A DNA stretch of 64,000 nucleotides from Desulfobacterales bacterium (lineage in GTDB: Bacteria > Desulfobacterota > Desulfobacteria > Desulfobacterales > UBA11574), in NCBI GenBank assembly GCA_030145345.1, contig JAQYVT010000003.1, positions 2,318 to 66,317 of the forward strand. Reading direction: 5' to 3'. The notes under the pieces were generated by a model. It searched no databases. It had not been told where the DNA came from and worked only from the letters and a program-made list of their open reading frames with translations. The translations under genes were made by a program, and so were the position numbers. Below are positions 15,238 to 59,317 of the stretch, one piece after another; the stretch's first letter is position 1, and each line of letters opens with the position of its first letter.

Positions 15238-15271
15238 CTAACGCTCCTAACCCGGAAAAACCGGGGGATTA

Positions 15272-15407
15272 AAATGCCTAAAGTGCCTAAAATGATCTAA
15301 AATGCCTAAATTGAGAATGCCTAAAGTGGAAATGCCTAAAATGCCTAAAATGATCTAAAATGCCTAAAGTGGAAATGTCTAAAGAGGGAATGCCTAAAAT
15401 GCCTAAA
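15272..15407 (+). repeat. Tandem array of 12 AAATGCCTA/AAATGATCTA units (downstream arm, element 1)
   Basis: Read directly; 9- and 10-mer units with occasional 6-bp spacers. Confidence 0.95.
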
Positions 15408-15421
15408 GTTAAGGTTCGATT

Positions 15422-15775
15422 TTATTTGTTTTTTCCGATTGAGGTGAATATTGCAAGCAATTCGCTGCATTCTTCGTATTCAGGTTTGATTTTTTCCCAC
15501 GTTAACCATCCTATCTCTATAATTATCTCTAACCAGTACTGGGTTTCACTGGCCTCACTTTCACAAATTTTGATCTTGTTTTTAAAATCAGCTCGACTTC
15601 TGGATCGGTTTGCCTAACGGTAGTTAGCGCCAATAGAGGTTCCAGATTTTGTAATTTGGTTTCTTACGACCATGCCCTCGGGAGAGTTGGGCAATGTTAT
15701 TGATAAGCGGATTATTCGTACTGCAAATTTTCGCGTACGCTTTTCAAGATCTTTTGCAAACTGTTTGCGTTCCAT
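15422..15775 (-). pseudogene. Four-helix-bundle (IVP/Avd-like) gene copy with in-frame TAG at codon 54
   Basis: 354 bp, about 93% identical to 19826-20179 (24 mismatches by hand count); GAG>TAG at 15614-15616; absent from the ORF track. Confidence 0.88.
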
Positions 15776-15782
15776 AATATAA

Positions 15783-15813
15783 TTTTAGGCAATTTAGATC
15801 ATTTTAGGCATTT
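15783..15813 (-). repeat. Inverted repeat arm, 3 units (upstream arm, element 1)
   Basis: TTTTAGGCAATTTAGATCATTTTAGGCATTT is the reverse complement of the left array units. Confidence 0.9.
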
Positions 15814-15863
15814 AATTCTCTGCTTTCTATGGGTAAATCAAAATCGGGTCCTTTGGATCCGGG

Positions 15864-16883
15864 TTATAACCGCCCAGTCAATCCTTTGGGTATTCTTCCG
15901 GTATGTACACATTCTGAGCGGAGTCTTCGGCCCAAAATCTTTTCGAGCATACGGCCTATCCTGAGGACTCTGTCCACATCGACACCGGTATCGATCCCCA
16001 TTTCATCCATCATGACCACCATATCTTCCGTGGATACAAGGCCCACGATACCCGGATCTGGATAATAGTATTCTCCGGTGCCGGGAACCGGAACACCGTC
16101 TAAAAAATTGGCGGGCTGTCCGCCGGTGCCGCCCAGGGTCGATTCGAAATGCGTGATTCCGGCCTGAAGCGCTGCCAGCACATTGGCAAGCCCCCAACCG
16201 CGGGTGACATGGAAATGGGCCACATGTTTGGAGGGATCCGGAATTGCATCGAGAACCATGGAATAATATTCGTACACTTTGTTGGGCGGGGCAGATCCGT
16301 CATGATCGGCATGCTCGATATCGTCCGCTCCGATGTCAAGCCACCGCTGTGTAAATTCAACGGCTTTTTTCATTTCCGTGGGGCCCTCGATGGGGCAGCC
16401 CCAGATGGTGCTCACGGTCCCGCAAACTTTCATTCCTGCATCGTGGGCTTTTGGAATATAGGTTTCACACATCTTCCAGTATTCTTCGAGAGAAAGCCCG
16501 GAGTTGGTCTTGTGATGGGATTCGCTGGTGGAAACCATGAACAGTATCCGGTCCGGACCATATCCTTCCTTACACGCTTCGATGGTTCTTTCCACAGCTT
16601 TTTCCCGGATGGTTATGGCGGTAATTTCGACATCTTTCAATAAATGGCCGACTTTCTTACTGGCATGCAGGCGCTTTGAAAGGTCATCGGCGTCCTTAAA
16701 CTGGGGCATCACCTTGGGATTACCGAAATTGGTCACCTCTAACCGCTTGAATCCGGCAAGAATAAGCTCTTCGGCCACCCACAGCTTTGCATCGGTCGGG
16801 ATGAATTTTTCTTCATGCTGGAAACCATCTCTTACGGTAATATCCCCCAATACCACCTTTTTCGGGTATTTTAATGAAGCCAT
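15864..16883 (-). CDS. Hydroxymethylglutaryl-CoA lyase (DRE-TIM metallolyase; LiuE-like)
   Basis: DITVRDGFQHE, WGCPIEG, HFHVTRGWGLANVLAA, STEDMVVM; start MASLKYPK after GGAGG (the longer ORF-track start runs through repeats). Confidence 0.8.
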   Translation of the reverse strand: MASLKYPKKVVLGDITVRDGFQHEEKFIPTDAKLWVAEELILAGFKRLEVTNFGNPKVMPQFKDADDLSKRLHASKKVGHLLKDVEITAITIREKAVERTIEACKEGYGPDRILFMVSTSESHHKTNSGLSLEEYWKMCETYIPKAHDAGMKVCGTVSTIWGCPIEGPTEMKKAVEFTQRWLDIGADDIEHADHDGSAPPNKVYEYYSMVLDAIPDPSKHVAHFHVTRGWGLANVLAALQAGITHFESTLGGTGGQPANFLDGVPVPGTGEYYYPDPGIVGLVSTEDMVVMMDEMGIDTGVDVDRVLRIGRMLEKILGRRLRSECVHTGRIPKGLTGRL

Positions 16884-16942
16884 CTGTATCCTCCTAAACC
16901 GGGTAAACCGGCCTATAGCTTGGCTATAACTAAAATTATCTG

Positions 16943-17051
16943 CCACCAAGGCATTAAGACACAAAGGAAGTATTTTATTCGCCTTCGCCTGAATACCCTG
17001 CAGCTTGCTGCGGGGAGCTTCATTATGCTTAGTGTCTTTGTGCCTTAGTGG
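16943..17051. repeat. Cargo-less element with inverted 8-mer repeat arms (CACnAAGr x3)
   Basis: CCACCAAGGCATTAAGACACAAAG versus the reverse complement of CTTAGTGTCTTTGTGCCTTAGTGG. Confidence 0.65.
16992..17023 (+). repeat. Short palindromic repeat ATACCCyG...GCGGGGAGCTTCA, copy 1 (IS200/IS605-end/REP-like)
   Basis: Same motif at 46281, 47721 and 51889. Confidence 0.7.
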
Positions 17052-17100
17052 TGAAAAGAAAAAATTTTGCCAAATATTAAAGAAAATTACTATTAAGACG

Positions 17101-18687
17101 CTAAAACCGAAAATTCCCAAAAGAAGGATCGCCGATGGGCTGAAAAAGACTTACCTCGAACGCCATGGCCAGCCAGTTGCGAATTTCAGAAAATTTTAAG
17201 ACCCGGTCATTCAAAAGACGCCCGCCACAGTAAAACGGATGGGCCTCCCCGTCGTATTTTATGATCATCTCCTGGCTGAAGGCCTCTTTTTCCGCTTCGC
17301 TCATGGGGGCTTTCTGCCGGTCACGTTTTCGCTCTTCGATGGAAAGCAGAACTCCGGCGGCACTCCGGCCGCTCATGACAGACGTTCTGGCCCTCATGGT
17401 GGAAAAGAGAAAGTGAGGCCTGTACGCCCTGCCGCACATGCCGTAATTGGCCGCCCCGTTATCCGGTCCGATAACCAGTTGGATACGCGGTACCTGAGCG
17501 CATGAAACCGCCCTCACCATGTCCGCACCATATTTGCCGATACCCATATGTTCCGACTCGGATCCCACCATGTAGCCGGGGGAACTCTGAATAAAAAGAA
17601 GGGGAATTTTTTCCTGACAACAGCGGACAATCCATTCTGTGGCCTTTCGCGCGGCTTCAAAAAATATTATGCCGACGCCGTTGGATGCAACAACGCCGGT
17701 GGGCAGCCCTTTTATGCGCATTTTACCGGTGACGATATTATCCCCCCGCCCGGGCGCATAATCTTTTTTGTATTCGGAAAAAACGCTGTCATCGGCAATG
17801 GCTTCCAGAAATGCACGAACATCGATCCCCTGGTAAACGGACGCCGGCAGGATTTCATAAACGGACGTTTCCGGAACTTTTGGCGGGGTTTCGGCATAGC
17901 GGTGGAGCTGAAGTTTCTGGGGGGGCTCCAGCATGAGGATCTCTCTAACACGCGCAATCGCTTCCTCCTGATTGGAACAAAAATGATCTGCACCGCCTGA
18001 AATCTGTGTATGTATTTTTGCCCCGCCAAGGTCCTCTGCAGAAATGGTCTCACCGGTTGCCATTTTTACCAGAGGGGGACCGCCCAGAAAGCTGTAAGCC
18101 AGTTTATCGATCATCACCGATTCACAGGCCATAAAAACGATGTAGGCGCCGCCTGCAGTATTACCGCCGGTGCTCAGGGTAATCTGTTTAAGGCCCATTG
18201 CCGACATCCGAGCCATATTGTAAAACATGGATCCGAAATGCTGGTCGTCGGGGAAAACTTCAGCCTGCATGGGAAGGAAAGCGCCGCCTGAATCAGCGAT
18301 ATAAACGCAATTCAATCCACACCGTTCGGCAATGGCCTGGGCTCTCATATGCTTTTTGAGGGTAATTGGAAAATATGTGCCGGCTTTTACACGGCTGTCG
18401 TTGGCGAAAATCATGGACCAGTTGCCGTGAATTTTTCCCAATCCTGTTACAAGGCCGCCGCAGGGAACATCCATAACCCCCGGATAATCCATTCCGAAAC
18501 CGGCGATACGGCTGAGCTCAAAGAACCCGGTCTCCGGGTCGATGAGTTTTTCAATAAGTTCTCTGACCGGACGTTTGCCCTGTTTAACCAGTCTTTCGAC
18601 AGCTTTTTCACCCCCGGGCCACATGGCCTGTTTAACCCGTTCTTCGAGTTTTTTTTCTTCATTTTCCCAGAACGATCGATTGGTCAT
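17101..18687 (-). CDS. Acyl-CoA carboxylase carboxyltransferase subunit (methylcrotonyl-CoA carboxylase beta-like, LiuB-like)
   Basis: ANDSRVKAGT, DSGGAFLPMQ, GGPPLVKMATGE, GAANYGMCGRAY; liu-like neighbours. Confidence 0.85.
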   Translation of the reverse strand: MTNRSFWENEEKKLEERVKQAMWPGGEKAVERLVKQGKRPVRELIEKLIDPETGFFELSRIAGFGMDYPGVMDVPCGGLVTGLGKIHGNWSMIFANDSRVKAGTYFPITLKKHMRAQAIAERCGLNCVYIADSGGAFLPMQAEVFPDDQHFGSMFYNMARMSAMGLKQITLSTGGNTAGGAYIVFMACESVMIDKLAYSFLGGPPLVKMATGETISAEDLGGAKIHTQISGGADHFCSNQEEAIARVREILMLEPPQKLQLHRYAETPPKVPETSVYEILPASVYQGIDVRAFLEAIADDSVFSEYKKDYAPGRGDNIVTGKMRIKGLPTGVVASNGVGIIFFEAARKATEWIVRCCQEKIPLLFIQSSPGYMVGSESEHMGIGKYGADMVRAVSCAQVPRIQLVIGPDNGAANYGMCGRAYRPHFLFSTMRARTSVMSGRSAAGVLLSIEERKRDRQKAPMSEAEKEAFSQEMIIKYDGEAHPFYCGGRLLNDRVLKFSEIRNWLAMAFEVSLFQPIGDPSFGNFRF

Positions 18688-18885
18688 AAGATTTCCTCTC
18701 AATCTTGTCCAAAATAAATTATTTGAAGCAACACAATCACACGGGGAGCCCTGGAGTAATGGCGTGTTGGGATAATGGAAAAATCAGAGTTCCCTCCAAT
18801 AATTTAAGGCTATTTTAACCCGAAGATGTGTTGACTGTTGGTTGTTAAATCAGAAAACAAATTATCTTGGACACTACTGAATTTT

Positions 18886-19668
18886 CTATCTGCCTTTGTA
18901 CACAGGTTTTCGCTTCGCTTGAAAGGCGGCAAGGCCTTCGCGTCGATCCTCTGTTGGAATGGTTACCCAATATGCATTCGATTCAATACCAAGACCCGTG
19001 TGAAGATCGGTTTCGAGCCCGTAGTTGATGGCATACTTGGCCTGTTCAATGGCGATGGGCCCGGTTTCACAGATCATGGCGGCCATTTTTTGACATTCCT
19101 CTAAAAGCGATTCCGGGTCGGATATTTGATTGACAAGCCCGATCTGAAGGGCTTCCCGGGCGTCCACGCGACGACCGGTAAATATGAGTTCCTTGGCTTT
19201 GCCGCGTCCGATCAGCCTTGGAAGTCTTTGTGTGCCGCCGGCTCCCGGAATGATGGCAAGACGGGTTTCCGTAAGACCCATGGAGGCATTCATGGCCGCG
19301 ACCCGAATGTCGCAGGCAAGGACGAGTTCCGTTCCGCCGCCGAGGGCGACGCCGTTGATGGCTGCAATCACAGGTTTATTGAGGTATTCGATGGACGTAA
19401 AAAGATTTCTTATGGTGAAAATGAATTCCTTTACCTGAAGATCGCCAAAGGTGGTTCTTTCTTTCAAATCTGCGCCGGCACAGAAGGCCTTCCGGCCGGC
19501 GCCGGTAATGATGACCACCCGAACGTTGTTGTTAAATTTAAGTGCATCGACCTGCTCTTTAAGAGAATGAAGCAATGCAAAATTAAAAGAATTCATTACC
19601 TTGGGTCGGTTTAGCGTAAGAACTACGATGCCATCTTTTTCTTCTGCCAAGAGGACCTTTTCATTCAT
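18886..19668 (-). CDS. Enoyl-CoA hydratase (methylglutaconyl-CoA hydratase-like)
   Basis: AFCAGADLKER, ALGGGTEL, ETRLAIIPGAGGTQRLPR. Confidence 0.88.
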   Translation of the reverse strand: MNEKVLLAEEKDGIVVLTLNRPKVMNSFNFALLHSLKEQVDALKFNNNVRVVIITGAGRKAFCAGADLKERTTFGDLQVKEFIFTIRNLFTSIEYLNKPVIAAINGVALGGGTELVLACDIRVAAMNASMGLTETRLAIIPGAGGTQRLPRLIGRGKAKELIFTGRRVDAREALQIGLVNQISDPESLLEECQKMAAMICETGPIAIEQAKYAINYGLETDLHTGLGIESNAYWVTIPTEDRREGLAAFQAKRKPVYKGR

Positions 19669-19686
19669 GAAACCTACCTTCCATTT

Positions 19687-19812
19687 AAAATGCCTAAAAT
19701 GCCTAAAATGATCTAAAATGCCTAAATTGAGAATGCCTAAATTGCCTAAAATGATCTAAAATGTCTAAATTGAGAATGCCTAAAATGCCTAAAATGATCT
19801 AAAATGCCTAAA
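19687..19812 (+). repeat. Tandem array of 12 units with ~43-bp higher-order period (downstream arm, element 2)
   Basis: (9+9+10+9+6 bp) module repeated three times. Confidence 0.95.
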
Positions 19813-19825
19813 GTTGAATAAATGA

Positions 19826-20179
19826 TTATCTTTTTTTGCCGATGGTTGTGAATATTGCAAGCAATTCGCTGCATTCTTCGTATTCAGGTTTGATTTTTTC
19901 CCACGTTAACCATCCTATCTCTATAATTACTTCCAACCAGTACTGAGTTTCACTGGCCTCACTCTCACAAATTTTGATCTTGTTTTTAAAATCAGCTCGA
20001 CTTCTGGATCGGTTTGCCTCACGGTAGTTAGCACCAATAGAGGTCCCAGATTTGGTAATTTGATTTCTTACGACCATGGCCTCGGGAGAGTTGGGCAATG
20101 TTATTGATAAGCGAATAATTTGCACTGCAAATTTTCGAGTGCGCTTTTCAAGATCTTTTGCAAACTGTTTACGTTCCAT
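19826..20179 (-). CDS. Four-helix-bundle protein (23S rRNA intervening-sequence protein / Avd-like family)
   Basis: 117 aa; RTRKFAV...LP...NQITKSGTSIGANYREANRSRSRADFKNKIKICESEASETQYWLE signature of the family. Confidence 0.9.
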   Translation of the reverse strand: MERKQFAKDLEKRTRKFAVQIIRLSITLPNSPEAMVVRNQITKSGTSIGANYREANRSRSRADFKNKIKICESEASETQYWLEVIIEIGWLTWEKIKPEYEECSELLAIFTTIGKKR

Positions 20180-20190
20180 GCGTTACCCAA

Positions 20191-20230
20191 TTTAAGGCAC
20201 TTTAGGCATTTTAGATCATTTTAGGCATTT
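20191..20230 (-). repeat. Inverted repeat arm, 4 units (upstream arm, element 2)
   Basis: TTTAAGGCACTTTAGGCATTTTAGATCATTTTAGGCATTT. Confidence 0.9.
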
Positions 20231-20235
20231 GACCC

Positions 20236-21384
20236 TTAACATCCGATATATCGAGAGATGACGATCCGCTGGACCTCGGAAGTCCCTTCTCCAATGTCCA
20301 GCAGTTTCTGATCGCGATAAAACCTTTCCACATGGTATTCCTTCATGAGACCATATCCGCCGTGGATCTGAACAGCATGGTTCGCCACCCGTCCCATCAG
20401 TTCGGAACAGTATAGCTTGGCCATGGCGGCCTCTTTTTCAAAAGATCTTCTGTGATCTTTCAGCCAGCAGGCTTTGTACAGGAGATTCCGTGCACATTCG
20501 ATTTCAAGGGCGCAGTCTGCCAGCTTGAATGCAACCGCCTGGAACTTGCAAATGGGTTGCCCGAACTGGACCCTCTTTTTGGCGTATTGGAGTGCGGCTT
20601 CATAAGCGCCCTGGGAACCGCCGAGTCCCATGGCGGCAATGGAGAGCCTGCCCCCGTCCAGGGTCGAAAGCATCTGGTGAAAACCGTCTCCCTTTAAACC
20701 CAGAATATTATCTTCGGAGATTCTGACGTCATTGAAGAAGAGTTCAGCGGTGTCTGAAGCACGCCACATCATCTTTTTGTGCATGGGAACAGCTTTAAAT
20801 CCCGGAGTCCCGTGTTCCACCAGAAAGCATGTGTATTCGGGCTTGCCGCTGGGCCTTTTTCCGGTAACCGCCTGAACCGTGACGCCCATGCTAAGTTCAC
20901 TGGCGCCATTGGTGATGAATATTTTTGATCCATTAAGAACCCATTCATTTCCATCCTTTACCGCGGTGGTTTTGCTCCCTCCGGCATCGGAGCCGGCGGA
21001 AGGCTCGGTCAATCCGAAACCCCAGAGCCCTTTGCCGGCACAAAGTTCGGGAAGATATTTTTTCTTTTGTTCCTCTGTACCGAAATAATATATGGGGCCG
21101 ATTCCCAGAGAGTTGCCGGCTGCAACGGTGGCGGCTTGAGATCCATCGACCCTTGCAATTTCTTCCACAGCAATGATGTAGGACAGATAATCCAACCCCT
21201 GACCGTCATCGTCTTCTGAAACAAACATGCCGAAAAGACCGATTTCTCCCATTTTTCGGGTGAGTCCAGCGGAAAACGCCTCTTTTTCATCAAGTTCAAG
21301 AGCGACCGGCGCGATTTCGCTTTGTGCAAATTTCCGGACTTCTCTGCGAATCATTTCCTGTTCTTTTGTTAGATCGAAATCCAA
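20236..21384 (-). CDS. Acyl-CoA dehydrogenase (isovaleryl-CoA dehydrogenase candidate)
   Basis: FGLTEPSAGSDA, NGSKIFITNG, QIHGGYG, IGEGTSEVQR; TTG start after AAGGAG; liu-like operon. Confidence 0.9.
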   Translation of the reverse strand: MDFDLTKEQEMIRREVRKFAQSEIAPVALELDEKEAFSAGLTRKMGEIGLFGMFVSEDDDGQGLDYLSYIIAVEEIARVDGSQAATVAAGNSLGIGPIYYFGTEEQKKKYLPELCAGKGLWGFGLTEPSAGSDAGGSKTTAVKDGNEWVLNGSKIFITNGASELSMGVTVQAVTGKRPSGKPEYTCFLVEHGTPGFKAVPMHKKMMWRASDTAELFFNDVRISEDNILGLKGDGFHQMLSTLDGGRLSIAAMGLGGSQGAYEAALQYAKKRVQFGQPICKFQAVAFKLADCALEIECARNLLYKACWLKDHRRSFEKEAAMAKLYCSELMGRVANHAVQIHGGYGLMKEYHVERFYRDQKLLDIGEGTSEVQRIVISRYIGC

Positions 21385-21539
21385 TGCCACTCTCCTTGAA
21401 ATCGAACTCCGGTTAAATAACAAAAACAGATTTAACTGGGCGAACAAAAATTAGAATTTTTGAAATGTTTCTACCTTTATGTCCGGCTTTCGAGACAGCT
21501 TGAAATGATGAATTCGTTAATGGTCTTTTGAAGGAAGCA

Positions 21540-22316
21540 TTAGCGGCACTTCCATTTCGGGTTCCGTTTTTCCAAAAAAGCGTCGATTCCTTCCAGGGCA
21601 TCGTCTGTCGCACACAGGGAAGCAAACAATTCATCCATATAGTCAATGGCTTGATGGTAAGGAATTTCAGACATGGCGTAGACGCCGGCTTTTCCGGTCT
21701 GCACCGCCAGGGGGCTTTTTTGAGCAAGTTTAGCGGCAAGCGCCATGGTTTCGGCTTCAAGTTCGTCGGGCGGCACGATTTTGTTGATAAGTCCGAGCCG
21801 TTCAGCTTCGGGGGCGGAAATAATATCTCCGGTCAGGATCATTTCAAGGGCTTTCTTGCGGCCCACATGACGCGCCAGGGGAACCGCCGGACCCAGACAG
21901 ATCAATCCCACGTTGATGGCGGTGGTTCCGAACCGCGCATTTTCGGCAGCCACTGCCAGGTCACATGCAAAGACAAGACCTGCGCCGTTGGCCACTGCAG
22001 CGCCTTTGACCGAAGCGATCACCGGCTTTTTCATTCGAGGCAGAGTATGGTAGAATTCATCCATTAAATTTAGAAACTCCCGGAGTTCTTTGGGGCTTTT
22101 CCCCTGGAACTCCGGAAGAGAGATGCCGGTTGAAAAATGTTTGCCTGCCGCGCGTATCACCACCACACGCACTTCGTCGTCTTGATCCAAATCCCAAAGG
22201 GCGTCATTCAAAGCTCTGGCAAAGGGGACATTAAAGGTGTTCATGTCTTCGGGCCGGTTCAGGGTAATCAGTCCGATCATATCCTGCTTATCGATTAAAA
22301 CGGGGGTTTTTTCCAT
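21540..22316 (-). CDS. Enoyl-CoA hydratase/isomerase family protein
   Basis: LNRPEDMNTF, KPVIASVKGAAVANG, AERLGLINKIV. Confidence 0.88.
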   Translation of the reverse strand: MEKTPVLIDKQDMIGLITLNRPEDMNTFNVPFARALNDALWDLDQDDEVRVVVIRAAGKHFSTGISLPEFQGKSPKELREFLNLMDEFYHTLPRMKKPVIASVKGAAVANGAGLVFACDLAVAAENARFGTTAINVGLICLGPAVPLARHVGRKKALEMILTGDIISAPEAERLGLINKIVPPDELEAETMALAAKLAQKSPLAVQTGKAGVYAMSEIPYHQAIDYMDELFASLCATDDALEGIDAFLEKRNPKWKCR

Positions 22317-22346
22317 GACACACTCCTTTTTTGATAACGAAATGTT

Positions 22347-22507
22347 GACGGCGTCGTAAAAAGTCCCATCTACTGCGTTGTAGTATTTTTTCAGACACTC
22401 GACATACTATATGTATAGCCTCGTTCCTGAAAAAATACTACGCCTTGTATATGAACCTTTTTACTTAGCCATCTATGGTTGAATTCATGACTTTTTGCGA
22501 GATCATC
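22347..22507. mobile_element. MITE with GAyGGyyTCGTAAAAAGTC-type ends and flanking direct repeat AAATGTT
   Basis: 19-bp imperfect TIRs; AAATGTT on both sides; same TIR family at 41004-41213. Confidence 0.75.
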
Positions 22508-22628
22508 AAATGTTAATATCCGTTAAAAACGGCGGTTGGCAATTGTAAATCTTTGAAAGGCATCATAGCATAAATATCGGCCGGTTCACATTATTGTTCG
22601 GTATGATCGATATTTTTGCCAGTCATTA

Positions 22629-22646
22629 TGAGCGAGCGCTCGGTCA
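22629..22646. promoter_or_regulatory. TetR operator candidate TGAGCGAGCGCTCGGTCA, copy 1
   Basis: Near-perfect palindrome with an identical copy at 22791; lies downstream of the minus-strand TTGACA (22684-22689). Confidence 0.7.
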
Positions 22647-22790
22647 CAAGATAATGCTTATTTGTACCCGCGTCTGTCAGATTTGTCAATATCTTTCTTA
22701 TCCCCCGATTTATAAGGCATTATCATGGGTAAAGGTTTTCCGTTTCGGGGAAAGATATTGACATGAAAAACTGGAACGTGCTATGGATTG

Positions 22791-22808
22791 TGAGCGAGCG
22801 CTCGGTCA
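22791..22808. promoter_or_regulatory. TetR operator candidate, copy 2
   Basis: Identical 18-mer downstream of the plus-strand TTGACA (22758-22763) and upstream of tetR. Confidence 0.7.
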
Positions 22809-22860
22809 GAATGAAGGCCATATTCGATCATAACTTGATAGTATAGAAATTTCATTTTTT

Positions 22861-22976
22861 GGACACAGACCCGCCTGCCACGCAAGGCGCGAGCGGGCAG
22901 GTGAACACAGATTATCAAGATTCTTAAAATAAAAAATGATATTATTATCTGTGAATATCTGCGAAAATCTGTGTCC
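22861..22976. repeat. Cargo-less element with inverted ~10-mer arms (ACACAGAT / ATCTGTG)
   Basis: GGACACAGA...GAACACAGATTATCAAGATT versus ATCTGTGAAT ATCTGCGAAA ATCTGTGTCC; a GC-rich palindrome is nested in the left arm. Confidence 0.6.
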
Positions 22977-23016
22977 TATTTAGCTTGAACAAATTTTTAG
23001 GATTATAGCAGAACAA

Positions 23017-23640
23017 ATGCGTGCCACAAAAGGAATTCCCACTCAGATAAAAAACCCTGTTCTTGTGGAGCAGCGGCATCTCCAGATTGTTGATGCTGCG
23101 GTTCAGCTTTTCATCAATCAGGGGTTTCACAAAACCACGACACGGCAGATCGCGCGTGCCGCGGGCCTTTCCATCGGCTCATTGTATGAATATGTCGCTT
23201 CCAAAGAGGATATCCTGTATTTGGTTTGCGATGCAATCCATGCAGAGGTCGAGCGGGGTGTGTCGGAAGCAATGGAAAGAGCGGCAGGAGGCCGAAAGTC
23301 CCTGGCTGAAGCCATCCGTGAGTATTTTTTGGTCTGTAATCGTATGAGTGATCATATTCTGCTTATCTATCAGGAAACTCAATCCCTTCCACCCCAATGG
23401 CGCAAAAAAGTACTGGAAAACGAAGTCCGCATCACCGGTATTTTTATGGAAGTGCTCGAGGGTTTGGTTTCGTCCGGAGATTTGCCCCATTTAAGTGATC
23501 GATCCATGGAACTGATGGCGCACAATATTTCCGTTCTCGGACACATGTGGACGTTTCGACGATGGTTCCTTGCACGGCACTACAGTATTGAGGATTATAT
23601 TAAGTTCCAGACCGAATTTATTCTTGGAATAGCCAAATAA
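23017..23640 (+). CDS. TetR/AcrR-family transcriptional regulator
   Basis: QIVDAAVQLFINQGFHKTTTRQIARAAGLSIGSLYEY HTH. Confidence 0.92.
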   Translation: MRATKGIPTQIKNPVLVEQRHLQIVDAAVQLFINQGFHKTTTRQIARAAGLSIGSLYEYVASKEDILYLVCDAIHAEVERGVSEAMERAAGGRKSLAEAIREYFLVCNRMSDHILLIYQETQSLPPQWRKKVLENEVRITGIFMEVLEGLVSSGDLPHLSDRSMELMAHNISVLGHMWTFRRWFLARHYSIEDYIKFQTEFILGIAK

Positions 23641-23878
23641 AGTTAAACCCTAATTGATCGTAAACAAACTGGGATAAACATTATAAGAATCTAGGTTTTT
23701 TATATATTTTGTAGATACAAATGTGTTTTCATAACGATCCCTAATCCACCCGGACAGTTTCCAGAACGAAATTTAATTATATCTTAAACTCGCATCAAAT
23801 TGATTTGCTAAAAGTGTTTGAAACAGCCTCTAAACATTTTGGTTAAATTTAACACCTTCAATTTTATGAGGAGGGGGC

Positions 23879-26800
23879 ATGAATGTAGACGTTGAAGTTT
23901 GTAGGCCCAAACACCATATCCGGGTCGTTACCGCAACATCTCTTTTTGACGGTCATGACGCGTCCATAAATATCATGCGCCGAATACTCCAGGATGCCGC
24001 CGTTGAGGTCATTCATCTGGGGCACAACCGCTCTGTCCAGGAAATCGTCGATGCTGCGATACAGGAAGATGTTCAGGGAATTGCGGTGTCCAGCTACCAG
24101 GGAGGGCATGTGGAATTTTTCAAATACATTATTGACCTTTTGAAAGAAAAAAGGGTTCCACATATCAAGGTGTTCGGGGGCGGCGGCGGTGTTATCATCC
24201 CTGATGAGATTAGAGCGATGGAAGCCTATGGTGTAACCAAGATATATTCTCCTGAGGACGGCGCCAAAATGGGGCTGCAGGGGATGATTAACCATATGGT
24301 CGAGGCTATGGATTTTTCTACGAACCAAGGAAAGGATTTTAACGTTGCCGGTCTTTCTACAGACGACACGTACACGGTTGCCAACCTTATTACCACTGTT
24401 GAACTGGCCAAAGCAGAAGGAAACGGACACCTTGCCAGGCTTAGAACCGAAATTTTAAACAAAATCGGCAAACGAAAAACACCGGTTATCGGCATTACCG
24501 GAACCGGTGGCGCCGGCAAATCGTCCCTCACGGACGAGCTGATTCTGAGAATTCTCCACGACCTCAAGGACATTAAACTGGCAATTATCAGCAGTGACCC
24601 TTCGCGGCGCAAAACCGGCGGTGCGCTTCTAGGGGACAGAATCCGGATGAATGCCATCGAGAATCCAAGGGTTTACATGCGAAGCCTGGCAACCCGTCGA
24701 TCACAGACAGAAATTCCCCATGCCTTGGCTGAAGCCATAGACGTTGTGAAGGCAGCAGGCTTTGACCTGGTGATTGCAGAAACGGCCGGTATCGGGCAGG
24801 GAGATTCAAGCATTATCGACTTGGTCGATTTGTCGATCTATGTAATGACCAGCGAATTCGGCGCCGCCACGCAGCTCGAAAAGATAGACATGCTCGATTT
24901 TGCAGATCTTGTGGTCATAAACAAATATGAAAAGCGGGGCGGTGAGGATGCGGTCCGGGACGTCCGCAAGCAGGTGCAGCGCAACCGGAAGGCATGGGAC
25001 AAGTCACCCGAGGAAATGCCGGTCTATGGGACCATTGCCTCAAAATTCAATGATGACGGGGTTACGGCCTTGTACCATGCTATTATGGATACGCTGACAA
25101 AAAAAACAGGGATTGTTTTTGACTCGAATCTACCCAGAACCCAAACGTGCATTTCAACATCCAAAACCATCATTATCCCTCCGGAACGCACCCGTTATCT
25201 TGCTGAAATTGCGGATACCATCAGAAGCTATCATCAGAAGACACAAGCGCAAGCGGATGCTGTTCGGAAAGTATGGCACCTAAAAGAGGCTGCAGCAACC
25301 CTAAGCAATGACAATCTTAACGGCGATGCATCAGAAGTTTTAAATCGGCTTAAAGCGGAAATTGCAACGGCCGAAGACGGGCTCCATCCCGAGACGACCC
25401 GTCTGCTTGACGACTGGGAAGAGATCAAAGAAACGTATACCAAAGACGAACTAGTCTACCGTGTGCGAAATCGTGAAATAAGGGTCCCCCTTTACCATCA
25501 ATCGCTCTCGCATACGCCAATCCCGAAGATCGTTCTCCCCAAATTCGAGGATCCCGGAGAAATTTACACCTGGTTAAGGGAAGAAAATGTCCCCGGCCGG
25601 TTTCCGTTTACCGCCGGTGTCTTTCCGCTAAAACGGGTGGACGAAGATCCGACCCGAATGTTTGCCGGAGAAGGCGATCCTGCCAGGACCAACAGAAGAT
25701 TCAAACTGTTGTCTGAAAATTACGCAGCCAAGCGTCTGTCCACGGCGTTTGATTCCGTAACATTATACGGATACGATCCGGATCGAAGACCCGATATTTA
25801 CGGCAAGGTAGGGACTTCGGGAGTCAGTGTATGCACCCTCGACGATGTCAAAGTTTTATATGATGGTTTTAATCTATGTGCCCCCAGCACATCGGTTTCC
25901 ATGACCATCAACGGCCCCGCACCCATAATGCTTGCCATGTTTTTAAACACGGCTGTAGACCAGCAGATTGACGTGTTCCGAAGTGACAAAGGAAGGGCGC
26001 CGACGGAAAAAGAATACAACGACATTCGTTCCATGACGCTGTCCAATGTTCGCGGTACGGTTCAGGCGGACATTTTAAAAGAGGATCAGGGTCAAAACAC
26101 CTGTATCTTCTCCATAGAATTTGCGCTGAAAATGATGGGAGATATCCAGGAATATTTTATAAAAAATGATGTTCGCAATTTCTATTCGGTTTCCATTTCA
26201 GGATACCACATTGCCGAGGCCGGCGCCAATCCGATTACCCAACTGGCCCTCACCCTGGCCAACGGCTTTACCTATGTGGAATATTATCTGTCCCGGGGCA
26301 TGCCCATCGACAGTTTTGCACCCAATTTGTCCTTCTTCTTTTCCAATGGCATGGAACCGGAATATACGGTGATCGGGAGGGTGGCGAGACGCATATGGTC
26401 TATTGCTATCCAAAATAAATACGGCGGGTCGGTCCGGTCTCAGATGATGAAATATCATGTGCAGACATCCGGCCGCTCCTTGCACAGTCAGGACATCCAG
26501 TTTAACGACATCCGGACAACCCTTCAGGCGCTCTGTGCGATTTATGACAACTGCAACAGTCTTCACACCAACGCCTTCGATGAAGCCATTACAACGCCTA
26601 GCAACGAATCGGTCCGGCGTGCACTGGCCATCCAGCTCATCATCAACCGGGAGTGGGGCCTTGCCAAGAATGAAAATATGAACCAGGGGAGCTTTGTGGT
26701 AGAGGAACTGACGCGGCTCGTGGAAGAAGCGGTTCTTTCAGAATTCGACAGGATTGCCGAACGCGGCGGCGTACTCGGCGCCATGGAAACCGGCTACCAG

Positions 26801-27157
26801 CGGAGCAAGATTCAGGAGGAATCGATCTATTATGAGAATCTAAAGCATACCGGTGAATTGCCGATCGTTGGTGTCAATACCTTCCGGGATCCTGACGCCG
26901 ATCTGGAACAGCTGTCTGAATGTATTGAACTGTCCAGGGCCACCGAAGCTGAAAAGGAATCACAACTCAAGCGTATGGCAGAGTTCAAGAAACGGAATGA
27001 AAAAGAAGCCCCGAAAATGCTCGAACGCCTCCAGAAAACCGTTTTGTCCGGAGATAATATCTTTGTCGAACTTATGGAGACCGTCAAGGGATGCACACTG
27101 GGGCAGATTACCCAGGCATTGTATGATGTGGGGGGGAAGTATCGACGGAACATGTAG
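23879..27157 (+). CDS. icmF: Fused isobutyryl-CoA mutase / MeaI GTPase
   Basis: N-terminal B12-binding DGHDAS, GTPase GTGGAGKSS, mutase barrel ([37 protein letters not shown]); 1092 aa. Confidence 0.93.
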
Positions 27158-27284
27158 CCGAAATGCCTAAAATGATCTAAAATGCCTAAATTGCCTAAAA
27201 TTACATTTAGGGTACGGTCATACGAACTGGACAGTCCAAAAATCTTCTAACTTTTTGAAATTATTAAGACCACAAAATAATCGC

Positions 27285-27365
27285 CGTCATTCCCGCGAAA
27301 GCGGGAATCCAGAACATCATCAGCAACAGATGATTCCTGGATGCCGGATCAAGTCCGGCATGACG
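27285..27365. repeat. REP/dRS3-like palindrome doublet
   Basis: CGTCATTCCCGCGAAAGCGGGAATCCAG ... CTGGATGCCGGATCAAGTCCGGCATGACG. Confidence 0.75.
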
Positions 27366-27387
27366 AGAGAACTTTAGACGCTCAAGA

Positions 27388-27444
27388 TACGAAGAATTCA
27401 GCGAATTGCTTGCAATATTTATCTCAATGGGGAAAAGCAAATAA
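27388..27444 (+). pseudogene. 3' remnant of four-helix-bundle gene
   Basis: Translates YEEFSELLAIFISMGKSK*, matching YEECSELLAIFTSIGKNK* of copy 1. Confidence 0.85.
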
Positions 27445-27578
27445 AATTGGCAATTCCACTTAAATTTAGGCATTTTAGATCATTTTAGGCAATTTAGGCA
27501 ATTTAGGCATTTCAACTCGAGATGCTTTACCGGACTATCTATATTAGACAATACCAACAAGCATATAAAGGGGATAAT

Positions 27579-32133: not shown

Positions 32134-32367
32134 GTAGGCGTTCACGGGTTCAAAGGTTCAGGGGTTCAAGGTTCTATTCTTGTCCCCGGACTGCATTTGG
32201 GATGCGTATTTACGAGAAAAGCGTCAGTTTCGTCAGTTCTAATCCAAAATTTGAAGCTAAATTGGCAATTACTTGGGAAAATGAACATTTGTAACGAGGA
32301 CTTCAGATCTTCATGCCTTCTTTGTCCTTAACCCTGAACGTTGAACCCTGAACCTGTGCACGGTTAC
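32134..32367 (+). mobile_element. ~233-bp repeated element with GGTTCA(A/G) repeat arms, copy 1
   Basis: Near-identical to 41227-41459 and, inverted, to 38180-38412. Confidence 0.85.
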
Positions 32368-38179: not shown

Positions 38180-38412
38180 GTAACCGTTCACAGGTTCAGG
38201 GTTCAACGTTCAGGGTTAAGGACAAAGAAAGCATGAAGATTCGAAGTCCTCGTTACAAATGTTCATTTTCCCAAGTAATTGGCAATTTAGCTTCAAATTT
38301 TGGATTAGGACTGACGAAACTGACGTTTTTCTCGTAAATACGCATCCCAAATGCAGTCGGAAGACAAGAATGGAACCTTGAACCCCTGAACCTTTGAAAC
38401 CGTGAAGTTTAC
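38180..38412 (-). mobile_element. ~233-bp repeated element, copy 2 (inverted)
   Basis: Reverse complement of 41227-41459. Confidence 0.85.
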
Positions 38413-38461
38413 AATAAATATAATACAGATTCTATACTCAAGGATCTAAAGGAGTGTTAAT

Positions 38462-41226: not shown

Positions 41227-41459
41227 GTAAGCGTTCACGGGTTCAAAGGTTCAGGGGTTCAAGGTTCCATTCTTGTCCCCGGACTGCATTTAGGATGCGT
41301 ATTTACGAGAAAAGCTTCAGTTTCGTCAGTCCTAATCCAAAATTTGAAGCTAAATTGGCAATTACTTGGGAAAATGAACTTTGTAACGAGGACTTCGAAT
41401 CTTCATGCTTTCTTTGTCCTTAACCCTGAACGTTGAACCCTGAACCTGTGAACGGTTAC
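41227..41459 (+). mobile_element. ~233-bp repeated element, copy 3
   Basis: Termini GTAAGCGTTCAC / GTGAACGGTTAC with internal GGTTCA repeat arms. Confidence 0.85.
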
Positions 41460-41505
41460 TGATATTCCAATCTAAAAAATAAACTGGACGAGTTGGGAGG
41501 ATATT

Positions 41506-59240: not shown

Positions 59241-59317
<77 letters not shown>

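Follow-up and report, generated by a model that had tools for sequence, protein, structure and literature searches.

Three putative intervening-sequence-type cassettes, with inverted short-repeat arrays around a four-helix-bundle gene, in operon spacers of a Desulfobacterales bacterium

The window analyzed here (the whole 64,000-nt stretch of Desulfobacterales DNA) contains three loci that are, on balance, probably resident and mostly dying copies of a widespread cassette of the intervening sequence (IVS) type. Such a cassette consists of a PF05635/TIGR02436 four-helix-bundle gene, a preceding array of 7-10-nt units typical of the clade, and the inverted array behind the gene. In the proposed mechanism, it would have no promoter of its own and would be transcribed by read-through. 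The arms of the transcript would pair into a long RNA stem, as in the IVS of 23S rRNA; RNase III cuts such stems in IVS, and the pairing would let the host tolerate the insertion. The protein, putatively a pentamer, may recognize the iterated units of its own cassette, for which Avd provides a precedent by analogy. Gene-less arrays and hairpins, which far outnumber the gene-bearing copies, would have arisen by deletion and would persist or spread through functions supplied in trans.

The function of the S23p/IVP protein and the origin of the rRNA IVS have been open since the early 1990s, and the same is true of the short arrays of cyanobacteria and xanthomonads. The evidence described below ties IVS, S23p/IVP genes, and short tandem arrays into one cassette architecture, which is frequent between the genes of operons in many phyla, shows a strong bias toward the direction of host transcription, and carries repeat units that appear to follow the clade of the protein. 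Such arrays are liable to be misread as CRISPR-like or regulatory repeats, and the small genes can stand inside cas or catabolic operons without belonging there.

The three loci were delineated by a scan for the 19-mer AAATGCCTAAAATGATCTA, which has nine matches in the window at up to 2 mismatches versus none in 100 shuffles. The matches are confined to the three loci and are on the plus strand on one side of the gene and on the minus strand on the other. Tandem arrays were identified by TRF at positions 15270-15407, 15782-15813, 19686-19817, 20190-20230, 27161-27201, and 27463-27512; the long arms also have a higher-order periodicity (58 and 43 nt). The resulting features are as follows.

15272..15407, minus strand: copy 1, 3' arm, ~13 inverted units with the 58-nt higher-order period; units on the gene strand, TAGGCATTT/TAGATCATTT
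15422..15775, minus strand: copy 1, pseudogene of the PF05635 family, interrupted in frame by TAG at codon 54
15782..15813, minus strand: copy 1, 5' arm, 3 units, outer terminus AAATGCC
19687..19817, minus strand: copy 2, 3' arm, ~13 units with the 43-nt higher-order period; its distal end is the partner of the 5' arm in the predicted RNA fold
19826..20179, minus strand: copy 2, gene for the intact 117-aa four-helix-bundle protein P0001 ('SIGANYREA' type)
20190..20230, minus strand: copy 2, 5' arm, 4 units, 10 nt upstream of the ATG
27161..27201, plus strand: copy 3, 5' arm, 4 units, starting 3 nt past the stop of the IcmF-type mutase gene
27202..27386, plus strand: copy 3, filler, unrelated sequence in place of most of the gene
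27387..27444, plus strand: copy 3, gene remnant, ~58 nt from the 3' end with the stop codon
27463..27512, plus strand: copy 3, 3' arm, 5 inverted units

The cassette termini read AAATGCC...GGCATTT and, together with the inverted unit arrays, constitute terminal inverted repeats. All three cassettes are co-oriented with the flanking host genes, which encode proteins (HMGL-like, HTH-cupin, ECH, acyl-CoA dehydrogenase, IcmF-type mutase, and thiolase); this host cluster is a catabolic cluster of the leucine/isovalerate type, and the copies sit in its mRNA spacers. The end of the copy 2 5' arm is 5 nt past the acyl-CoA dehydrogenase stop, and the filler of copy 3 contains two G+C-rich hairpins belonging to a separate small repeat. 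No rRNA was found in the window by the Rfam search, whose only match at the gathering threshold is a tRNA, with none in the cassettes. A scan for consensus matches detected neither a convincing gene-strand promoter ahead of copy 2 nor terminators at the cassettes. Around the copy 2 ORF, an RNA stem of ~45 bp is predicted (-144 kcal/mol, z -3.87), in which the 5' arm pairs with the distal 3' arm.

The protein of copy 2, P0001, matches PF05635 (E 4.7e-21, 75.4 bits; curated cut-off 33.8) and TIGR02436 (E 2.5e-25, 88.8 bits; curated cut-off 24), as well as the PDB entry 2rld_A (E 6.6e-21), the latter being a sequence match to an entry that holds 5 chains. Its profile matches are restricted to these two families and include no HUH-type transposase, and no match was found in PADLOC or in PHROGs. 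A NIAEG-type paralogue matches the PHROG 'Avd protein of DGR' (E 2.2e-14). We know of no catalytic activity for the PF05635/TIGR02436 family. Copy 1 matches PF05635 with one TAG (positions 15614-15616, codon 54) and is 93.2% identical to copy 2 at the nucleotide level, with 17 synonymous and 6 non-synonymous changes (pN/pS 0.09); across the compared copies, pN/pS varies between 0.04 and 0.19. Stop codons interrupt three of the five full-length copies in this genus and G013, namely those at site 1 in this genome (G000), site 2 in G002, and site 3 in G013. As long as a copy is alive, its protein evolves under purifying selection, yet stops and deletions often kill copies.

Most of what the original prediction had described in the window was reproduced. 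The AAATGCCTAAAATGATCTA scan and TRF recovered the inverted array-gene-array layout at all three positions, and the distances to the acyl-CoA dehydrogenase and IcmF-type mutase stops, the ~93% identity of copies 1 and 2 with mostly synonymous changes, the co-orientation with host genes, and the lack of target-site duplications at the three copies agree with our measurements. The suggestion that the arms are able to close an RNA stem around the ORF is consistent with the predicted fold. With respect to the cassette genes, the intact copy 2 and the remnant in copy 3 stand as described, and the in-frame TAG of copy 1 had been overlooked.

The three sites are occupied in congeners, and site 3 also in another genus. 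Alleles of the relatives at these sites include deletions, stop codons, and empty alleles; in the assembled sequencing contigs of relatives, one allele has 112 other letters replacing the cassette (X1 record 1), other contigs (X4) hold the gene with arrays, and in G004 one site is empty except for a tandem duplication of 15 nt. Since relatives have copies at the same sites, the three copies are not recent transpositions; they are inherited at fixed sites in this genus.

The genome as a whole contains 50 PF05635 matches in ~41 loci, of which ~34 are broken. All full-length uninterrupted ORFs of the family (7/7) are preceded by an array of their own and followed by its inverse, and three-fourths of the arrays (18/24) lie away from the gene. 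Within one genus, the copy number of the family ranges from 3 to 50 matches. Of 17 array-rich relatives, 10 have the cognate gene (at least 66% identity, in any state), as has 1 of 14 array-poor relatives; these genomes are not independent of each other. As no cognate gene was detected in seven of the 17 array-rich relatives, including G012 (46 matches, 98% completeness), arrays need no gene to persist. Among the metagenomic array matches, whose loci were screened for the small gene only, 2 of 91 adjoin the gene and 89 do not. Gene-less hairpins and gene-bearing cassettes have leader and trailer segments in common, of which the trailer recurs at 5 of the 80 gene loci and 16 of the 80 array loci and, in this genome, at six sites. 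The arrays break assemblies, accounting for at least 13 contig ends in this genome.

The generality of the architecture was assessed in a survey of 80 relatives of the copy 2 protein (56-97% amino acid identity, ~10 phyla), for which a three-protein alignment of the window's own clade served as the query, so that one clade is covered. Two or more forward unit cores of the CTAAAGTG type occur within 150 nt upstream of the gene in 68 of the 80 relatives, two or more reverse cores within 200 nt downstream in 67, and units on both sides in 59. The density of unit cores near the gene is 2.14 and 1.55 per 100 nt versus 0.05-0.08 in the far flanks, the motif and its windows having been chosen after inspection of the data. 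Between this genome and L066, synonymous sites are near saturation (pS 0.76), and the unit core is nonetheless kept. In these comparisons, conservation of the unit core goes along with that of the protein across phyla, which fits the earlier proposal that the arrays are iterated binding sites; part of this conservation could stem from concerted array evolution and from the horizontal transfer of entire cassettes. The outer termini are conserved in 65 cross-phylum loci. Units of the window clade are of the CTAAA(A/G)TG type with outer ends AA(A/G)TGCC...GGCA(T/C)TT, and other clades carry other unit types. In seven of eight named plasmid loci, a clade-specific array precedes the gene and its inverse follows; one of these loci lies within a 23S rRNA gene and is a true IVS. 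No relative of the window-clade protein was found in 2.9 million viral contigs.

The co-orientation seen in the window generalizes strongly. In the 80-locus survey, the upstream neighbor is on the strand of the gene in 63 cases and on the opposite strand in 5, the downstream neighbor in 60 and 5 cases, and both neighbors in 52 cases and 1 case, respectively, with strands assigned by a crude longest-open-frame rule that left 12-15 of the 80 loci undecided. The upstream neighbor is on the same strand in 11 of 11 non-MITE cassettes of this genome, and all annotated plasmid examples (6/6) are co-oriented. In Flavobacteriaceae, the cassette sits exactly between the stop of one gene and the start of the next; in seven empty genomes, the stop and start read TAAATG or TAATG, or are a few nucleotides apart. 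The same inter-gene site has open reading frames in several flavobacterial loci (L111, L122, L128-L130, L138, and L139). At some sites the gene is intact across several genera, and with such long-intact genes a host-useful role fits as well as a selfish one.

No target-site duplication was found at the three window copies, between filled alleles and the empty alleles of relatives, in Flavobacteriaceae, or at the 65 cross-phylum loci. The insertion chemistry of the AAATGCCTA family is not RT-based here and leaves no target duplication. In one filled locus only, AAATGC is present on both sides, which is unconvincing as a target duplication. The origin of the tandem arrays as piled-up target duplications was rejected, since the arms are inverted and not direct.

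A second family of repeats dominates this genome, an ISL3-derived MITE with ISL3-type ends (~92 BLAST groups). It makes 8-bp AT-rich duplications, which are perfect in 11 of 19 copies and match at 7 or more of 8 positions in 14 of 19 (re-paired control mean, 2.2), 5 of 24 copies having been dropped from this count as the script found no boundary. An ISL3 element with ends matching those of the MITE was found at G000:C186:7139-8519 with the duplication TTAAAACT; this only assembled ISL3 copy has no arrays and a frameshifted gene, and its ends differ from those of the AAATGCCTA/CTAAAGTG cassettes. Two MITE families of this genome have similar arrays inside their ends and 8-bp duplications, the window has three occurrences of an array hairpin that lacks the gene and has 8-bp duplications, and broken MITE copies with a common nested insertion were propagated. 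In Nostoc PCC 7120, the 84-nt inverted ends of an ISL3 element, consisting of a TIR and a (GGCAGAG)n array, enclose both the transposase and a four-helix-bundle gene. Array-bearing MITEs with 8-bp duplications point to transposase-based movement and not to the action of the small protein, and the original label 'transposase-less' fails genome-wide, where the dominant family rides the ISL3-type MITE.

The second family, the Nostoc element, and the gene-less hairpin of the window favor an interpretation of the cassettes as an ordinary TIR transposon or MITE, with arrays serving as subterminal sites for a DDE transposase acting in trans, the gene being only a passenger or accessory, and the window copies being immobilized non-autonomous elements. 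We consider this unlikely, if worth serious thought. The AAATGCCTA/CTAAAGTG family has no target duplication, and no ISL3-type terminal motif was found for it in the window, in relatives, or in the 65 cross-phylum loci; no transposase was seen adjoining CTAAAGTG arrays, the metagenomic loci having been screened for the small gene only, or having ends that match those of the family; and the sole assembled ISL3 copy has neither arrays nor an unbroken gene. Moreover, this interpretation leaves unexplained why the unit type tracks the small-protein clade and why 52 of 53 same-strand neighbor pairs are on the strand of the gene. The cassette might instead be a domesticated operon module, kept because it helps the host, for instance with the stem and protein acting in the processing or insulation of polycistronic mRNA or in uncoupling the translation of neighboring genes. 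The strong purifying selection (pN/pS 0.04-0.19), the flavobacterial site occupied with open frames in several loci, the exact placement between stop and start, the sense-orientation bias, and its location between cas genes in cyanobacteria (see also PMC3936711) speak for such a role, which is rendered rather improbable by the frequent pseudogenes and deletions (stops in 3/5 copies, ~34/41 loci broken), the empty alleles in close relatives, the range from 3 to 50 matches within one genus, and the mutually unrelated host contexts.

It is quite improbable that the arrays are an independent simple-sequence phenomenon, arising by slippage or as structure-forming repeats, and that the gene merely tends to be found among them. 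Most arrays do lack the gene, the 43- and 58-nt block duplications and the 15-nt duplication in G004 show slippage-type growth, and heptamer arrays of Xanthomonas and Nostoc were described with no gene link in the available text (PMC4692102); however, on the two sides of the gene each arm is always the inverse of the other, conservation of the unit core goes with the protein clade across phyla, the outer termini are conserved, and gene-less hairpins share their leader and trailer with gene-bearing cassettes. An RNA-mediated spread, in which the transcript loop is copied back by an RT acting in trans with the Avd-like protein as an accessory, is hardly credible. The relationship of the family to Avd, including the PHROG match of the NIAEG-type paralogue, and the strong sense co-orientation are in its favor. 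An RNA/RT route, toward which the original prediction had hinted, is nevertheless without support, since the whole genome, at 97.8% completeness, yielded no RVT_1 match; P0001 has no PHROG or PADLOC match, 2.9 million viral contigs contain no relatives, and the junctions have neither A-tails nor duplications. Of the observations that the original prediction had set against itself, sites shared with relatives and mostly gene-less arrays were found, and random orientation was not.

Beyond the favored reading of the window loci as resident copies of an IVS-type cassette, we tentatively raise a broader one. It is conceivable, if unlikely, that the IVP/Avd-type pentamer recognizes the ends sequence-specifically in a new kind of repeat/protein mobile system, comparable to REPIN-RAYT. 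With similar reserve, each protein clade might be imagined to bind its own 7-10-nt unit and to gather the two arrays, either as DNA or as the transcript stem. The pentamer might thereby, though we would not expect it, direct the insertion, maintenance, or copying of gene-bearing and gene-less copies. Finally, there is a slim case for regarding the 23S rRNA IVS, the STRR heptamers, and the Xanthomonas heptamer arrays as products of one system.

The cyanobacterial STRR are short tandem heptamer arrays. Both they and the GGGAATC arrays of Xanthomonas resemble the window arrays in being short-unit tandem arrays between aligned ORFs. For Xanthomonas and Nostoc, heptamer arrays between aligned ORFs, often arranged as convergent pairs (70-75 pairs) and mostly transcribed, were described by Rehm et al. 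(2015), whose text, as far as available, makes no link to an S23p/IVP gene and has no occurrence of 'S23' (PMC4692102). The Xanthomonas arrays are read in the same portion of that text as G-quadruplex repeats (PMC4692102), whereas the units here are A/T-rich and G-quadruplexes are impossible.

The IVS of 23S rRNA (Leptospira, Coxiella, and others) have the same protein family as the window cassettes and likewise an ORF set between complementary ends that pair into a long stem. In Coxiella, RNase III excises such stems, and three tandem heptamers GACAGAT are located just before the ATG of S23p (PMC4990558), similarly to the short tandem repeats directly upstream of the ATG here. A plasmid-borne 23S rRNA copy of Azospirillum demonstrates exactly the array/inverse-array layout. 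Unlike IVS, the window copies are in mRNA spacers and not in 23S rRNA, and the IVS literature, in its available portions, treats the element as an rRNA peculiarity, without regarding it as one location of a general cassette. The pentameric Avd, an accessory of diversity-generating retroelements, belongs to the four-helix-bundle superfamily that also includes the window protein, and it binds a specific non-coding RNA segment (PMC6182149). Neither an RT nor the template and variable repeats of these retroelements were found here, and P0001 has no match to the Avd profile. The second cassette family of this genome resembles ISL3 insertion sequences and MITEs, whereas the three window copies have neither the terminal motif nor the duplications.

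REPIN-RAYT systems consist of a low-copy protein gene flanked by its own inverted repeats and many gene-less hairpins. The system described here differs in its protein, which is a 117-aa helical bundle and not an HUH transposase, and in its repeats, which are tandem arrays and not single palindromes. The likeness comprises the gene flanked by its own repeats, the dispersed gene-less intergenic hairpins, the long residence of the gene at fixed loci, and a tendency of gene and repeats to co-occur across genomes.

Matches to the 19-mer AAATGCCTAAAATGATCTA (9 in the window with up to 2 mismatches, vs. 0 in 100 shuffles) are confined to three loci (15272-15813, 19687-20230, and 27161-27512; copies 1, 2, and 3) and change orientation across each gene, in agreement with the layout first claimed for them, i.e., a four-helix-bundle gene with a short-unit array upstream and the inverse array downstream. 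The arrays were also detected by TRF, and the higher-order periods of 58 and 43 nt in the long arms point to array growth by block duplication. The two full-length genes are as follows:

15422-15775, minus strand: copy 1 gene, with an in-frame TAG at codon 54
19826-20179, minus strand: copy 2 gene, an open frame of 117 aa

The copy 2 protein is a member of PF05635 (E 4.7e-21) and TIGR02436 (E 2.5e-25) and matches the solved chain 2rld_A (E 6.6e-21; PDB entry with 5 chains). Copies 1 and 2 are 93.2% identical and differ by 17 synonymous and 6 non-synonymous changes (pN/pS 0.09), which bears out the original observation of about 93% identity with mostly synonymous changes; copy 3 is indeed a remnant, with only ~58 nt from the 3' end of the gene left between its two arms, alongside unrelated filler. 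Two hairpins rich in G+C, GTCATTCCCGCGAAAGCGGGAATCC and GGATGCCGGATCAAGTCCGGCATGAC, lie in this filler (27265-27365); loosely matched, the first of them has 17 occurrences in the source genome, and a similar hairpin lies 3' of the cassette in locus L078. The genes around the three cassettes encode an HTH-cupin regulator, an HMGL-like lyase, a carboxyltransferase, two enoyl-CoA hydratases, an acyl-CoA dehydrogenase, a fused B12/MeaB/mutase protein (IcmF-type), a thiolase, and a 3-hydroxyacyl-CoA dehydrogenase. The sole Rfam match in the window is a tRNA gene (59244-59317, minus strand).

In the source genome (3.57 Mb, 188 contigs), the layout is shared by the gene family as a whole. The 50 PF05635 matches were merged into 41 loci, including 7 uninterrupted full-length ORFs and 2 full-length ones with stops, the rest being fragments, and PF05635 elements are interrupted by at least 13 contig ends. 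The protein is under purifying selection, and its copies die frequently. In each subfamily, a characteristic short unit forms the upstream array and reappears inverted on the downstream side (e.g., GGGTTCAAGG/CCTTGAACCC; GGAGTAxTGGAGT/ACTCCA; GGAAAGAGGAAAT; GGGATCAGGGGCCAG; ACTGAAGGTTGAAGG; CAAATAACAAA/TTTGGGATTT). Residues Q40, S47, N51, E54, and E77 are invariant in both protein types, "SIGANYREA" (window copies and contigs C184 and C147) and "NIAEG". No RVT_1 reverse transcriptase was found in this genome (completeness 97.8%).

The three copies are vertically resident in the genus. The junctions read in a comparison of 30 relatives show that they are not recent transpositions, since relatives carry cassettes at the same sites. 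At site 1, an "empty" allele in two congeners still keeps one unit (ATTAAAATGCCTAAAATTC), one has a 15-nt tandem duplication of this unit, one has a full cassette with an intact gene and a nested foreign array, and one has a scrambled remnant; in other genera, a gene-less array element was found in one and a clean short spacer in a further one. Site 2 is occupied in congeners by a full cassette with a TAG, a deletion derivative, and a remnant (one each), whereas two congeners and one other genus are without an array and have a different spacer, and another genus has an array of a different type. The spacer orthologous to window 19669-20235 in G018, a relative from another genus, contains a TTTGGGATTT-like array with a partly masked stretch, the type found around the C184 and C147 genes. 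At site 3, another genus carries in the corresponding position a cassette whose full-length gene is a pseudogene, and a further one has a spacer of 17 nt; among congeners, one deletion is common to two, and nested foreign arrays are present in two. The spacers at all three sites repeatedly collect array elements. Orthologous copies are 92-95% identical, approximately the same as the two window paralogs (93%), and thus the copies are about as old as the genus itself and are now decaying. The numbers of PF05635 matches across the genus (50, 21, 8, 6, 31, 3, and 5) reveal lineage-specific bursts.

The architecture is spread across phyla and has an orientation bias. A search with the window clade yielded 80 loci (56-97% identity) labeled as Desulfobacterota, Planctomycetota, Bacteroidota (including cultured Flavobacteriaceae), Calditrichota, Chloroflexota, Acidobacteriota, Gemmatimonadota, Poribacteria, and others. 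The unit core [CT]TA[AG]A[AG]T, which was defined after inspection of the loci, occurs in forward orientation 2.14 times per 100 nt within 150 nt upstream and in reverse orientation 1.55 times per 100 nt within 200 nt downstream, vs. 0.05-0.08 in the far flanks. At least two cores were found upstream in 68/80 loci, downstream in 67/80, and on both sides in 59/80, the exceptions being mostly variants still with AAGT. The cassettes usually begin with AAGTGCCTAAAG and end with CTTTAGGCACTT and have a median of three units per side, and no target duplication was seen at their outer ends. The unit is conserved together with the protein, and its core is kept despite nearly saturated synonymous sites between clade genes (pS 0.76-0.79), which speaks for selection on the sequence of the unit as such, beyond complementarity. 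The cassette genes L065 and L066, from MAGs labeled Desulfobacteraceae and Calditrichaceae, are 93% identical at the nucleotide level; either the gene crossed between phyla very recently or a 4.9-kb contig was wrongly binned.

Co-orientation with the host genes, as first noted for the window cassettes, all three of which lie on the strand of their neighbors, extends beyond n = 3. By the longest-open-frame rule, the upstream neighbor is on the same strand in 63 of the 80 loci (5 opposite, 12 undecided) and the downstream neighbor in 60 (5 opposite, 15 undecided); both neighbors are same-strand in 52 loci and opposite in 1. In the source genome, all 11 cassettes outside the MITE family described below have a same-strand upstream neighbor, and the flank calls of the MITE family are 29 same vs. 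9 opposite.

One carrier from the Flavobacteriaceae provides a clean insertion; the locus was matched in 36/81 genomes of its family. Four loci contain a cassette of 443-476 nt (at least one with stops), located exactly between stop and start codons, one contains a remnant, and three have other small inserts; in the seven empty loci (L158, L160, L161, L163, L164, L165, and L167) the flanking genes are joined as TAAATG/TAATG or lie a few nt apart.

A NIAEG-type query matched 43 plasmid records, and in seven of the eight examined an array of the cassette's own unit lies upstream and its inverse downstream:

Anabaena sp. 90 (L143): cassette between cas6 and cas4
Picosynechococcus sp. PCC 7003 (L146): cassette between cmr2 and cmr3
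Geminocystis, Riemerella, Leptolyngbya, and Gemmatirosa: plasmid cassettes
Azospirillum: cassette inside a plasmid-borne 23S rRNA gene, a true intervening sequence (IVS)

All six plasmid loci with annotated neighbors are co-oriented. The location between cas or cmr genes would explain earlier "cas-associated" reports of the family; 18 genes of this family inside cas loci were noted by Zhang and Ye, 2013 (PMC3936711).

Arrays can form part of DDE-transposon ends. In the eighth plasmid example, from Nostoc PCC 7120, an ISL3 element encloses its transposase and the small gene between 84-nt inverted ends composed of a TIR and a (GGCAGAG)n array. A second cassette family in the source genome, the GGGTTCAAGG family, is a classical MITE with ~92 BLAST groups, from full copies of ~590 bp down to end-only derivatives, and with ends GGATCATCTCCCGATTAGTTG and CAACTAAATTGGAGAAGAACC. 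Among the 19/24 two-ended copies with script-located boundaries, 8-bp direct repeats are perfect in 11 and match at 7 or more positions in 14 (re-paired flanks, mean 2.2). The same ends, with the duplication TTAAAACT, bound the only ISL3 element assembled in this genome (C186:7139-8519), which has a frameshifted transposase gene and is without arrays. A small palindromic insertion (CCTGTTAAATAA...TTATTTAACAGG) near codon 46 of the four-helix-bundle ORF is common to seven MITE copies (contigs C47, C86, C95, C122, C125, C139, and C154), and thus already non-functional copies were amplified. Gene-less hairpin elements of ~230 bp, with GGTTCA(A/G)GG arrays inside ends reading GTAxxCGTTCAC, lie between direct repeats of 8 bp (AATTATTT; TGATATAC/TGATATTC) in the window:

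32137-32365, plus strand: gene-less hairpin element
38186-38420, minus strand: gene-less hairpin element
41229-41460, plus strand: gene-less hairpin element

One such hairpin is nested in the site 3 array of the relative G002 and absent there in the source genome, which indicates that the element moved within the genus.

Gene-less arrays outnumber gene-bearing copies. Cognate genes (at least 66% identity, any state) were found in 10/17 array-rich relatives (at least 9 two-unit matches, with backward-pattern controls giving at most 3 across 31 relatives) vs. 1/14 array-poor ones, these relatives not being independent samples. However, 7/17 array-rich relatives show no such gene, and 18/24 arrays of three or more units in the source genome lie away from the three window cassettes. 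At least 10 of these 18 belong to a dispersed hairpin element of ~290 bp (contigs C17, C45, C56, C81, C95, C105, C115, C170, C182, and C147, outside the window), in which two terminator-like hairpins directly after a TAA precede an array of four AAGTGCCTA-type units; next comes a core of ~70 nt that contains a GCGC hairpin, followed by an incomplete inverted array. The element is also present in sediment metagenome loci (L192, L256). In a metagenome scan with three consecutive CTAAAGTG units (first 80 loci, 91 matches), 2 of these first 91 matches had the gene within 400 nt, and ~30 had an inverted array within 200 nt. A trailer segment is common to 5/80 gene loci, 16/80 array loci, and 6 sites in the source genome, and hence at least some of the hairpins are deletion derivatives. 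Solo AAATGCCTA-type arrays also flank a 566-aa GTPase-like ORF (C188:10093-12998, convergent) and a 297-aa nucleotidyltransferase-like ORF (C165:4206-5194, outward).

A literature search outside subscription journals and supplements revealed no paper in which this gene, enclosed by inverted tandem arrays, is treated as a general cassette beyond rRNA, although an earlier description is possible. The nearest literature comprises a study of the Coxiella IVS (PMC4990558), the description of heptamer arrays by Rehm et al., 2015 (PMC4692102), which does not mention S23p, the cas-locus observation of Zhang and Ye, and a survey of CPR bacteria for insertions in rRNA (2024). Earlier works cited there include those of Ralph and McClelland (1993) and of Lin et al. 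(2006).

No Rfam family matched the cassette, and no convincing candidate for its own promoter was found; transcription would proceed by read-through. Public RNA-labeled runs gave only contigs of relatives, which do not prove transcription of the cassette. In its predicted fold (-144 kcal/mol, z -3.87), the copy 2 sense transcript has the 5' arm paired with the distal 3' arm. An IVS-like stem may form in the transcript and would be cut by RNase III, by analogy with the Coxiella IVS, for which such cutting has been shown (PMC4990558). The small protein may recognize the array units, a precedent being Avd, the RNA-binding accessory of diversity-generating retroelements, which binds a specific non-coding RNA segment (PMC6182149).
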